Assembly (NCBI RefSeq): GCF_011045215.1
Contig: NZ_CP049201.1
DNA: 64,000 bases
DNA from: Escherichia coli
GTDB lineage: Bacteria; Pseudomonadota; Gammaproteobacteria; Enterobacterales; Enterobacteriaceae
Strand: one strand, 5' to 3'
Part shown: positions 42,001 to 45,000 of the stretch, one piece after another
Layout: each line of letters opens with the position of its first letter
Numbering within the stretch: the first letter of the stretch is position 1
Position numbers: made by a program

Positions 42001-45000
42001 AGAGTTAATGGCTGAAAGCTCTGTTGCCGCCGCTTCAATGGTATCACCAGCTAAAACAACAGGGCTGGATGTTGCTGAAATTATGAGTGCCAGTAAAGCT
42101 ACGTTTACAGTTTTCATTCATTTTCTCTTGTTCAAAATAAGTCGCATTAATGTTTCTATAAGAAACAAATAATATTGTTTTAAGAAATAAACTACGTTGC
42201 AATTTAATCGAAATCTACGCCGCCATTTGTGTGATGTAAAGCGCATTTTTGTCTGGTGTAAGCGTAAACACCACAAATAAGAAACAAAAATGGTTTCTTA
42301 TATAAATAAAAAAGGAAATTATTTCGTACTCTTTCAATGTAAAAAAGAGTAAAGACTTGTTTTGATAAGCGAAATAAATTCTGTTTCTGGACTAAACGTG
42401 AAGCGGTTCCTGATGTGTGCTAAAATGCGTTTCTTTGATAAATCTCAATTTTTAAGAGGTTTACGCCAGGCAGGAAAATTTAAATGAATGAATTTGAGAA
42501 GATTTTTAATGAAATGAATCTGGACCGGGCATTGCTACCGATCCTTTTTCGTTCGAACCGGTCGACAGTGTGGAAGTATTTAAGCGGCGATAGTACGGCT
42601 CCTGCCTCTGCCATGTCGCTGATTATGCTGTTGCAGTTGATACAGAAACGAAACCCCGATCTGTTAGCCGAATGGTTAACGCTTTCTGATTTCACCATTC
42701 CGCCAGAAGTTTACCTGGACCAGCCTGATTACTGGAAAGGGTGGGTGTATACCCAACATAAGGTCAATAAAAACGTCCTGGAATATCTAAAAAAACACTA
42801 TCCGGATGAAGACCAAAAAAGTATGGGTAAAGGCCGGGAAGAGTAATTTTGCCTCTACTCGGCTATATGCCGGATGCGGCGCAAGCGCCTTATCTGGCCT
42901 ACGATTCGGGCATATTTTGTAGGCATGATAAGACGCGTCAGCGTCGCATCAGGCGATGACCGCACGGATGATCAGCGTTATCCCTTCTATCGCAATGACT
43001 TCAACATGCGTACCTGCGCCGAGATCCTCGCTGGCGCTGACAGGCCATGAACTGTCACCGACGCGCATATGACCGCGCCCGTTGACCAGCGGAGATTCCA
43101 GCACAAAACGTCGGCCAATCAGCTGCTGCCCGCGCTGGTTTAAATGACTGTCGCTGTGCTTTTGTTCGCGCACCCGCCGCGACAACCATTTCCACCACAG
43201 CCAGGCGGCGAGCAGCGTCAGGACGGCAAACATCACCCCTTGCCACTCCCAACCCAGCGGCACCAGCCAGACCACCAGGCCGGTAATCACCGCTGCCACG
43301 CCGCTCCACAACAAATAACCATTTCCGCCCAGCATCTCGGCTGCCAGCAGCAAACCGCCGAGACTGAGCCAGAAAATATGTGGATGAACGACCATTAACT
43401 CCATCATGGCTGAGTCCGCTTGTTGGCGCTGTCTTTCACCAGCTCGGCAATCCCGGCAATCGACCCCATCAGGCTGCTGGCCTCTAATGGCATCATCACT
43501 ACTTTGCTGTTACTGGAGGAACCGATCTGCTGTAACGCTTCGGTGTATTTCTGCGCTACGAAGTAGTTCACCGCCTGAATATCACCGGAGGCGATGGCTT
43601 CAGACACCATTTTGGTGGCGCGGGCTTCTGCTTCTGCGGAACGTTCACGCGCTTCAGCCTGTAAAAACGCCGACTGACGTTCGCCTTCCGCTTTCAGGAT
43701 TTGCGACTGTTTTTCACCTTCGGCTTTGAGGATTTCCGCCTGACGGATCCCTTCCGCTTCGAGGATGTAAGCGCGTTTGGTACGTTCCGCTTTCATCTGC
43801 GCGTTCATTGAAGAGATAAGCTCTGCCGGTGGGCGCACGTCGCGAATTTCAATACGGGTGACTTTAATCCCCCACGGGTTGGTGGCTTCATCGACAATAC
43901 GCAGCAGGCGTGAGTTGATGCTGTCGCGCTGAGAGAGCATTTCGTCAAGTTCCATTGAACCCAACACGGTACGGATGTTAGTCATGGTCAGGTTGATGAT
44001 CGCCAGCTCCAGATTGCTGACTTCATAGGCAGCGCGTGGCGCGTCAATCACCTGAATAAAACAGACTGCGTCGATGGTAACGTTGGCGTTATCTTTCGAG
44101 ATAACTTCCTGGGAAGGGATATCGAGCACTTGCTCCATCATATTGATCTTGCGACCAATGCGATCCATAAACGGCACTACCAGACTGAGCCCCGGCTGTA
44201 ACGTTTTGGTATAGCGACCAAAACGTTCTACCGTCCATTGATAGCCCTGCGGCACGATTTTGACGCCCGCGCCGACAATGACCAGCGCGACAAAAATGAG
44301 AATCGGGATAAAGATAAGCATCGGAAAAACCTCCTGTTGTACCGTCCATAATCAGCAAAATTGCTGCTTGATTAAACAAATTATACCTGATTACTGAAAG
44401 AGAGTTCCCCCTTATTCCTGCGAAGGATAAACTGTTTTTAGTAAAAATCAGAAAAAGGGAACAGCGATGCAGGAAAATAGTCCTTTGCTTCAGCTACAAA
44501 ACGTAGGATATCTGGCGGGTGATGCGAAGATTCTTAATAACATCAATTTTTCGCTGCGTGCTGGCGAATTTAAGTTAATTACCGGTCCTTCTGGTTGTGG
44601 CAAAAGTACGCTGCTAAAAATAGTTGCTTCATTGATCAGCCCAACCAGCGGAACGTTACTGTTTGAAGGTGAGGATGTCAGCACACTAAAGCCAGAAATC
44701 TACCGCCAGCAAGTCTCTTACTGCGCCCAGACACCGACGCTGTTTGGCGATACGGTATACGATAATCTGATCTTTCCCTGGCAGATCCGTAACCGGCAGC
44801 CTGACCCAGCCATTTTTCTCGATTTTCTCGAACGCTTCGCCTTGCCGGACAGCATTTTGACGAAAAATATCGCCGAGCTATCTGGTGGTGAAAAACAACG
44901 CATCTCACTGATTCGTAACCTGCAATTTATGCCGAAGGTTTTATTGCTGGATGAAATAACCAGTGCGCTGGATGAAAGTAATAAACATAACGTTAATGAG

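Follow-up and report, generated by a model that had tools for sequence, protein, structure and literature searches.

The closest described counterparts of the locus analyzed here are Xre-type regulators and the operators that they read. The Xre-like protein P2 C binds as cooperative dimers to operator repeats that lie 22 bp apart, centre to centre, across the -10 element, with each dimer engaging one specific and one loosely specific half-site (PMC2995052). C.Esp1396I, whose dimers are likewise of the Xre type, assembles into a cooperative tetramer on adjacent palindromes of its own promoter and autoregulates, and the antitoxins HigA2 and MqsA both autoregulate through palindromes in their own promoters. 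At pap, a small regulator (PapI/PapB) is encoded divergently from an adhesin operon. Here, we analyzed a 64,000-nucleotide stretch of an Escherichia coli chromosome (contig NZ_CP049201.1 of assembly GCF_011045215.1; hereafter the window, or 64-kb window), in which an intergenic region separates an autotransporter-like open reading frame (ORF), z0639, from a divergent 120-aa ORF, z0640, and contains the inverted repeat AAGAAAC-N7-GTTTCTT. Our reading, to which we give a probability of about 0.6, is that this palindrome occupies the central position in an array of operator sites for a regulator of the Z0640 family, situated in the divergent promoter region of O-island 29 (OI-29).

Like P2 C with its O1 and O2 operators, the locus combines a small (~100-120 aa) predicted five-helix helix-turn-helix (HTH) protein with a 22-bp repeat spacing. 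P2 C is also among the fold matches of the Z0640 model, at ranks 13 and 18, with a Foldseek probability of just 0.28-0.38 (structures 2xcj and 2l49; weak template modelling (TM) scores of 0.34-0.46 and no sequence match). The P2 C operator, in contrast, consists of 8-bp direct repeats only and belongs to a phage switch, whereas the half-sites here are 5-6 bp long, alternate with N5 and N7 spacers, form perfect palindromes in E. coli, extend over ~300 bp and lie in a chromosomal adhesin cassette. In the C-box system, a single 35-bp operator has its sites 15 bp apart (centre to centre), compared to 22 bp here, and, unlike the setting of restriction-modification controllers, this locus contains no restriction-modification genes. 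HigA2 and MqsA are the closest structural matches; Z0640 differs from them in an unrelated C-terminal half (residues ~70-115) and in sequence scores under the family thresholds, and a search for an adjacent toxin gene found none, the neighbours being the divergent YadA-anchor gene and the convergent ybbJ, as at the orthologous loci. With pap, the locus shares an AT-rich divergent region of ~370-400 bp that separates a regulator from an adhesin gene and holds multiple phased candidate sites; its protein fold and motif are unrelated to those of pap, phase variation is not indicated (1413 colinear genomes), and no GATC/Dam sites were seen in the intergenic sequence. By analogy, the locus would work in the manner of Xre-type repressor/operator systems; it is neither a toxin-antitoxin system nor a restriction-modification controller.

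The palindrome reported in a preliminary description of this DNA is present letter for letter (AAGAAAC, 42279-42285; AAAAATG, 42286-42292; GTTTCTT, 42293-42299), and its setting, between the autotransporter-like ORF and the 120-aa ORF, is as described; this AT-rich divergent region measures 366 bp and has 30% GC. Its perfect arms are longer than claimed, reaching 9 bp on either side of the N7 spacer (ATAAGAAAC at 42277-42285 and GTTTCTTAT at 42293-42301). The related upstream copy noted at the same time is also there (TAAGAAACAAATAA, 42159-42172), but it is no mere half-site: it forms the right half of a second palindrome at 42151-42167 (TGTTTCT-ATA-AGAAACA), whose polarity is opposite to that of the central one. 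The array, as we read it, comprises the following elements, none of which is assigned a strand.

42277-42301: central palindrome, core GAAAC-N7-GTTTC, at ~-84 from the predicted adhesin start and ~-144 from the HTH-gene start
42151-42167: second palindrome, GTTTC-N5-GAAAC, in the predicted autotransporter 5' leader, ~35 nt from the ATG
42184-42188: degenerate box GAAAT, 22 bp from the GAAAC at 42162, a putative lattice remnant that is intact in other genera
42371-42397: GAAAT-N7-GTTTC-N5-TAAAC, a degenerate cluster of three boxes that spans ~-62 to -36 of the HTH-gene promoter
42429-42443: box GTTTCTTTGATAAAT, overlapping the predicted HTH-gene start, a candidate auto-repression site

The hexamer GTTTCT or its complement AGAAAC occurs six times in the 366-bp region (42152, 42161, 42280, 42293, 42383 and 42429) where 0.32 copies are expected, a count that none of 5000 first-order Markov simulations of the AT-rich region reached (P < 2e-4). 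The window as a whole holds 20 copies, so that six of the 20 fall in the intergenic region, as do three of the four copies of the 9-mer ATAAGAAAC. Within the 64-kb window, no exact GAAAC-N7-GTTTC or GTTTC-N5-GAAAC pair occurs outside this region, and a search for further box clusters across the window, including upstream of the giant adhesin gene, found none. Perfect inverted repeats whose arms reach 9 bp or more around a spacer of up to 10 nt, on the other hand, turn up in 6% of the simulated regions (P ~0.06), and the palindrome by itself is therefore weak evidence.

Five E. coli variants of the region, aligned at 83-99% identity, all keep the left arm ATAAGAAAC unchanged and the right arm as GTTTCTT, with a 7-nt spacer that reads AAAAATG, AAAAATA, AAAAAAT or TTAATCC; kept arms around a variable spacer are the pattern expected for a protein-binding dyad. 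The boxes at 42152, 42383 and 42429 are unchanged across these variants as well. The 6% figure is what speaks for a functionless, chance symmetry in AT-rich DNA. Such an explanation would have to accommodate the recurrence of the motif, the conservation of the arms and, across genera, the conserved positions and spacings of the boxes described below; it is effectively refuted by the comparative data, and we regard it as exceedingly improbable.

Two promoters are predicted between the divergent genes.

42212-42240, minus strand: predicted sigma-70 promoter of the autotransporter gene, -35 TTTACA (42240-42235), 17-nt spacer, -10 TAGATT (42217-42212)
42418-42426, plus strand: predicted extended -10 of the HTH gene, TGcTAAAAT (TGCTAAAAT), with a predicted start at ~42433

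A consensus scan places the predicted autotransporter start at ~42205. The HTH-gene promoter was missed by a two-hexamer scan because it has no good -35 element. Both signals serve as landmarks in 14 orthologous regions: the TGTAAAG block, which is the adhesin -35 read on the other strand, is present in 14/14 and unchanged in the E. coli variants, and TGnTA(A/T)NAT is present in 13/14, being altered in L002. The more distant modules L020-L023 carry TGGTAAAAT as the extended -10.

Relative to these landmarks, the boxes occupy recurrent positions. GTTTC starts 2 nt past the HTH-gene -10 in 11/14 loci and 3 nt past it in one more, and an equivalent of the GTTTC at 42383 is found in 10/14 loci, in each case 46 bp upstream of the box at the start site. 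On the adhesin side, GTTTC recurs at -81 to -83 relative to the -35 block in 10/14 loci; boxes sit at -82, -60 and -38 from TGTAAAG, with full arrays of this kind in L010, L016 and L019, and GAAAC lies at +45 to +47 or +67 to +69, the left arm of the central palindrome being the +46 box. Across 11 diverged intergenic regions, no 6-mer is more over-represented than AGAAAC (50 copies compared to 2.8 expected, in 11/11 loci), and the GTTTC/GAAAC core occurs in 3-8 copies per region.

The spacings between boxes are similarly constrained. When up to one mismatch is tolerated, the spacer is 7 nt in 21 of 31 GAAAC..GTTTC pairs and 5 nt in 20 of 39 GTTTC..GAAAC pairs, and the N5 and N7 spacings add up to a 22-bp repeat unit, GTTTC-N5-GAAAC-N7. 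Exact boxes in the same orientation are separated by 22 bp eight times, by 44 bp five times and by 46 bp eight times among 26 pairs within 60 bp. A repeat of two helical turns (22 bp) is thus seen eight times in regions of the Z0640 type, and it recurs five times in those of the P0027 type considered below. In the window, 22-bp spacing in the same orientation is left only between 42162 and 42184, the latter box being degenerate; intact 22-bp arrays are found in L010, L016, L017 and L019. The central palindrome is best read as an N7 junction of this lattice and the palindrome at 42151-42167 as an N5 junction, with a lattice that has largely decayed in E. coli and two palindromes that have stayed perfect. 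In other genera, the equivalent of the central N7 pair reads GAAAC-N7-GTTT(C/T/A) in four loci, being exact in Symbiopectobacterium (L008) and degenerate in one arm in L006, L013 and L016; L010, L017 and L023 have different arrangements in its place, on the same lattice. The conserved feature is the phasing of the half-sites and not the palindrome as such.

The half-site also changes in step with the HTH protein encoded beside it, for which reason the cassette's own protein is favoured as the binder. The DNA associated with proteins carrying NRSTxxKY/W contains 74 GTTTC copies in 4423 bp, and P0022 (NRSTLIKW) is accompanied by GGTTTCT boxes, one of them 3 nt past TGGTAAAAT. The P0027 subfamily (PRNTIFNY) is 32% identical to the E. 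coli protein and is paired with a YadA-anchor gene at another locus. A metagenome profile scan yielded seven loci of this type, whose upstream DNA (2170 bp) holds 0 GTTTC and 31 GTTC[CT] at 22- and 45-bp spacing, in layouts that include three direct GTTCT 22 bp apart (L026), ATTCT-N5-AGAAC-N7-GTTCT (L020) and AAGAAC-N7-GTTCCT (L021); the P0027-type cassette was searched for in E. coli genomes and was absent. The most distant relative examined, P0037 (PRSTIFNY), is encoded in a mobile element with two resolvase genes, divergently from small ORFs. Upstream of it lies an operator-like ATGTCC-N7-GGACAT-N3-ATGTCC (L024, 3870-3897), whose start-to-start distances of 13, 9 and 22 bp are those of AGAAAC-N7-GTTTCT and GTTTCT-N3-AGAAAC in the window. 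The mobile-element setting of P0037 suggests that a (phage-like) switch protein of such an element gave rise to the adhesin-linked regulators. For P0024 (HRSTSHKW), the layout of the three (G/C)TTTCTGC boxes is less clear.

A confident structural model presents the 120-aa protein as an Xre/Cro-type HTH protein. With an alignment of 17 diverse family members, AlphaFold2 predicts an N-terminal five-helix bundle and a helical C-terminal half at a predicted local distance difference test (pLDDT) score of 91.9; with 11 close homologues only, the score was 58, and it rose to 91.9 when the distant relatives were added. The model helices span residues 3-11, 15-22, 26-34, 41-56 and 58-70, which is the five-helix bundle of the Xre/Cro-C1 class, with the helix-turn-helix at helices 2-3. 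In a Foldseek comparison to the PDB, the top-scoring matches and most of the 50 matches listed are Xre/Cro-type DNA-binding domains, led by HigA2 (probability 0.99; root-mean-square deviation 2.4 A over 64 residues) and including the MqsA C-terminal domain (rank 33), P2 C, Aca2, C.Esp1396I and lambda repressor. Orthologues share a near-invariant putative recognition helix (residues 25-32, N-R-S-T-V-W-K-Y), which fits with their unchanged GTTTC motif.

From the motif with its enrichment, positions and spacings, the predicted HTH fold and the half-site change, we infer the binder, its stoichiometry and the sign of regulation as follows. The recognition element would be a 5-6 bp half-site, GTTTC(T), in alternating orientation and with fixed N7 and N5 spacings. 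Because the 22-bp lattice corresponds to two helical turns, all sites would face the same side of the DNA, and Z0640 dimers placed every 22 bp on this face may cooperate along the lattice. Each dimer would read either the 17-bp N7 unit or the 15-bp N5 unit; a single box together with a non-specific partner is another candidate for the bound unit. Negative autoregulation would act through the box that starts 2 nt past the z0640 extended -10, with the cluster at 42371-42397 spanning ~-62 to -36 of the same promoter. Boxes in the adhesin leader, where the 42151-42167 palindrome lies at ~+39 to +55, would hinder transcription of the YadA-anchor gene; in L010, L016 and L019, three boxes span ~+4 to +52 of this leader. 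The central palindrome, ~84 bp upstream of the adhesin start, may act as a high-affinity anchor for cooperative or looped binding. Since boxes overlap the start sites or follow them, we prefer a reading in which both promoters are, on balance, repressed; alternatively, the upstream palindrome might serve as an anti-silencing activator site.

The position of the second palindrome in the predicted leader raises the question of whether the palindromes act in RNA, as leader structure, attenuator or terminator, and not as DNA sites. The 9-bp stem folds at -7.7 kcal/mol (z = -4.0), and the 42151-42167 sequence, within the predicted adhesin leader, folds at -5.2 kcal/mol (z = -3.2). The central palindrome, however, lies upstream of both predicted start sites; its stem is AU-rich, with neither a GC-rich stem nor a T-run, and there is no terminator call at the palindrome. 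Moreover, the full leader has a z of -0.13, no Rfam match was found at E <= 1, the boxes stand in both orientations relative to both genes, and orthologues keep the boxes and spacings but not the pairing, with partner arms decaying to GTTTT, GTTTA or TAAAC. An RNA hairpin, a terminator or a known RNA family was accordingly rejected as the main function, on the grounds of the missing Rfam match and terminator call and the unconserved pairing, and we consider an RNA role very unlikely.

Two longer repeats connect the box clusters. A 34-nt direct repeat, D1 (42158-42191 and 42277-42310, 74% identical), joins both palindrome regions, and an imperfect 37-nt inverted repeat relates 42130-42166 to 42293-42329 (73% complementary); these repeats suggest that the box clusters arose through local duplication. 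Between the copies of the inverted repeat lie 126 bp in which the predicted -35 and -10 are found, and phase variation is common among adhesins, which could be taken to indicate that the 9-bp inverted repeats ATAAGAAAC (42158-42166) and GTTTCTTAT (42293-42301) bound an invertible, fimS-like phase switch. Against this, 1413 of 1413 E. coli genomes are colinear over at least 80% of a 401-bp query, at a single place and without an inverted allele; the islet has no recombinase, and the flanking repeat arrangement is missing in orthologues. The colinearity of all 1413 genomes and the lack of a recombinase in the islet led us to discard the invertible switch, whose probability we consider negligible.

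The preliminary description had offered the palindrome as a candidate operator for either a dedicated or a global regulator. A functional protein-binding element is what our data point to, but as one node in a phased multi-box array rather than a stand-alone operator, and the dedicated regulator is favoured by the arms conserved among E. coli variants, the box positions conserved across genera, the Xre-type fold and the half-site change in distant homologues. The principal alternative is that a global enterobacterial regulator or nucleoid protein of the Fis, OmpR or H-NS-antagonist type uses the boxes and thereby couples the islet to host physiology, with Z0640 not being the binder. Consistent with this are the 30% GC of the region and the AT-rich targets of H-NS, the resemblance of GTTTC-N5-GAAAC to the Fis consensus (G-N13-C with an AT-rich centre) and the occurrence of GAAAC within OmpR sites. 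To our knowledge, however, none of the RcsB, EvgA, PhoP, OmpR, CRP, Fis, OxyR and LytTR-type consensuses matches both half-site and spacing, Fis partly matching the N5 pairs, and the Fis consensus does not explain the strict TTTC conservation or the N7 pairs. A half-site switch between homologous cassettes would be unexpected for a conserved host factor. Also weighing against such a factor, the 64-kb window has no second box cluster. Expression of z0639 responds to temperature, pH and osmolarity, and deletion of z0640 has no motility phenotype (PMC5826968), both of which would fit with a global regulator; on balance, we consider such a regulator unlikely.

Several observations weigh against Z0640 as the reader of the array, besides the affinity of H-NS for AT-rich DNA and the likeness of the N5 pairs to Fis sites. 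The perfect palindrome is lineage-specific, with one arm degenerate or absent in several orthologues, both promoters are predictions from sequence, and the co-variation between half-site and protein comes from a small number of independent loci in each of three subfamilies. Despite the probability of 0.99, the Foldseek E-values (0.39) are weak, and Z0640 scores below every curated threshold for the Xre/Cro-C1 class at the level of sequence profiles: its best Pfam match is MqsA_antitoxin at 13.5 bits compared to a cut-off of 30, its relatives reach 14.9 against 23 bits for HTH_3 and 14.5 against 25.8 for Xre-like-HTH, with HTH_26 also sub-threshold and neither HTH_19 nor HTH_31 giving a match above its cut-off, an NCBIfam search with the 120-aa protein gave no match, and a profile search of PDB sequences returned only noise (E >= 0.34). 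Lastly, motility is altered by deletion of z0639 and unaltered by deletion of z0640 (PMC5826968), from which it follows that Z0640 is no essential activator of z0639 in those conditions. Net repression is compatible with this result, which weighs neither for nor against it.

The islet lies between cueR and ybbJ on the E. coli chromosome and consists of four ORFs. It is found in 1413 of 5426 complete E. coli genomes (about a quarter), with carriers that include O157:H7, O55:H7, avian pathogenic (APEC) and neonatal-meningitis lineages. Mapping of published deletion primers (PMC5826968) onto the window shows that it is OI-29 of O157:H7 EDL933, with the genes z0638, z0639/'gmrA' and z0640.

42484-42846, plus strand: 120-aa ORF z0640, assigned by primer mapping and annotated hypothetical, predicted here to encode an Xre/Cro-type HTH protein that would bind the boxes
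41101-42117, minus strand: 338-aa ORF z0639/'gmrA', with signal peptide, coiled-coil stalk and YadA anchor, the proposed regulated target
40594-41016, minus strand: z0638, 140-aa predicted lipoprotein, downstream of and co-oriented with the autotransporter gene, 'lipoprotein' in O157
40394-40597, minus strand: 67-aa ORF, last gene of the cassette, annotated hypothetical

OI-29 has been linked experimentally to motility (PMC5826968). Yang et al. 2018 reported that tagged Z0639 (His/FLAG) binds the fliA promoter by electrophoretic mobility shift assay (EMSA) and by chromatin immunoprecipitation with quantitative PCR (ChIP-qPCR), ascribed to it a CDD-predicted DNA-binding domain and named it the activator GmrA (PMC5826968). 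Judging from sequence, the published 'transcription factor' GmrA is the autotransporter-like ORF z0639, and the predicted HTH protein of the islet is z0640. The z0639 product matches Pfam YadA_anchor over residues 279-338 (E = 1.1e-11; 45 bits, cut-off 22.7) and is annotated by RefSeq as 'YadA family autotransporter adhesin'; coiled-coil-type matches cover its Q-rich residues 104-271, and its N-terminus, read from the translation (MKTVNVALLALIISATSSPVVLA), resembles a Sec-type signal. It therefore shows the C-terminal anchor, stalk and N-terminal signal peptide of a trimeric autotransporter, and no head domain was detected in it. Its nucleic-acid-related matches are just SMC/Rad50 coiled-coil hits far below threshold, which may be the source of the CDD-reported DNA-binding domain.

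The same publication offers a further candidate for the binder, in that GmrA itself could bind the palindrome and autoregulate its divergent promoter, given the reported EMSA and ChIP-qPCR on the fliA promoter and the CDD-predicted domain (PMC5826968). A protein predicted to be exported, with a signal sequence, a Q-rich coiled coil and a YadA outer-membrane anchor, argues against this, as does the O157 fliA promoter, which has one GAAAC and no phased pair; we consider autoregulation by GmrA extremely improbable. We flag that GmrA is predicted to be an autotransporter-type protein of the outer membrane. If Z0640 is the true regulator of the islet, the published role of GmrA in activating fliA through DNA binding would call for re-examination. 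Adherence to HeLa and Caco-2 cells was unaltered by deletion of OI-29 (Yang et al. 2018, PMC5826968). A literature search found no description of this intergenic region and, for the z0640 product, nothing beyond the lack of a motility phenotype.

Homologues of the 120-aa protein are rare, with 21 clusters at 90% identity and a family of 24 clusters among 1.84 billion representative proteins. A profile search of genome contigs returned four loci, two in Escherichia and one each in Pseudocitrobacter and Symbiopectobacterium, and the hosts of the cassette comprise these two genera, other Escherichia species and unassigned metagenome or assembly contigs. In all orthologues with readable context, the gene diverges from a YadA-anchor gene or its remnant at a distance of ~356-382 bp, and the same two small genes usually follow the autotransporter gene: a gene of 125-152 aa in L006, L017 and L018 or of 138 aa in L020-L022, and a gene of 64-69 aa at the position of the 67-aa ORF in L006, L007, L017 and L018. 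The chromosomal sites differ, being between qmcA and fetA, beside nrdAB or next to unrelated genes. A short, divergent YadA-anchor partner is found in 5/6 lineages examined, the sixth being in a mobile element.

A broader proposal, that OI-29 is a self-contained regulator-adhesin cassette and Z0640 its real transcription factor, founding a small, unnamed family, with a modular half-site code on a 22-bp lattice whose specificity has been switched at least three times, is advanced tentatively, at slightly less than even odds. What appears to be new is the family itself, which neither Pfam nor NCBIfam covers with a model, the repeated association of its members with short genes of the trimeric-autotransporter type in these five of six lineages, and the N5/N7 22-bp half-site lattice with switched specificities. 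An operator map and a candidate regulator are now at hand for a conserved surface-protein cassette, and GTTTC, GTTC[TC] and GGACAT in one geometry provide a natural specificity-swap series for HTH-DNA recognition.

Two further features of the intergenic region were observed. A block of ~75 bp at 42190-42265 (CGTTGCAATTTAATCGAAATCTACGCCGCCATTTGTGTGATGTAAAGCGCATTTTTGTC) is near-invariant in the five E. coli variants, with two changes in TUM13936, and is better conserved than the flanking coding DNA; within it lie the predicted promoter of the adhesin gene, a half-CRP-like motif (TGTGA) and a GC-rich spacer, and its conservation may exceed the needs of a promoter alone. Between the central palindrome and the HTH promoter, 42353-42366 (aaGACTTGTTTTGAta) contains a CTTGTTTTG element that is not a GTTTC box and is kept across genera (window, L011, L016, L017 and L018, with near variants in L008, L019 and L023).

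Among the relatives of the adhesin gene, divergent E. coli lineages (GN02350, L004 2099-3532; also L003 and L002) carry a longer autotransporter allele with a different stalk, ~470 aa from its MNTVKLSLLAV... start compared to 338 aa; in RefSeq, the GN02350 allele is a 5'-truncated coding sequence (start 3148), which leaves a false 'intergenic' gap of 730 bp. In L023 (220-3641), the partners of P0022 are two YadA-anchor genes in tandem (533 and 584 aa), beside a ParE-like gene fragment, and the cassette can thus hold duplicated adhesin genes. Directly 3' of z0640, at the islet/ybbJ junction, lies a sequence resembling a repetitive extragenic palindromic (REP) element, GCCGGATGCGGCGCAAGCGCCTTATCTGGCC (window 42870-42900), and the z0640-ybbJ spacer is ~76 bp longer in O157, at 178 bp (L005) compared to 102 bp (L001). 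A second adhesin system (window 15871-39986) adjoins the islet, in which a giant 6925-aa ORF ('BapA-related adhesin SiiEA' in RefSeq) precedes the genes of a type I secretion ABC transporter (720 aa) and an HlyD adaptor (391 aa). This system is presumably O-island 28, and its last gene, that of the HlyD adaptor, overlaps the start of cueR.

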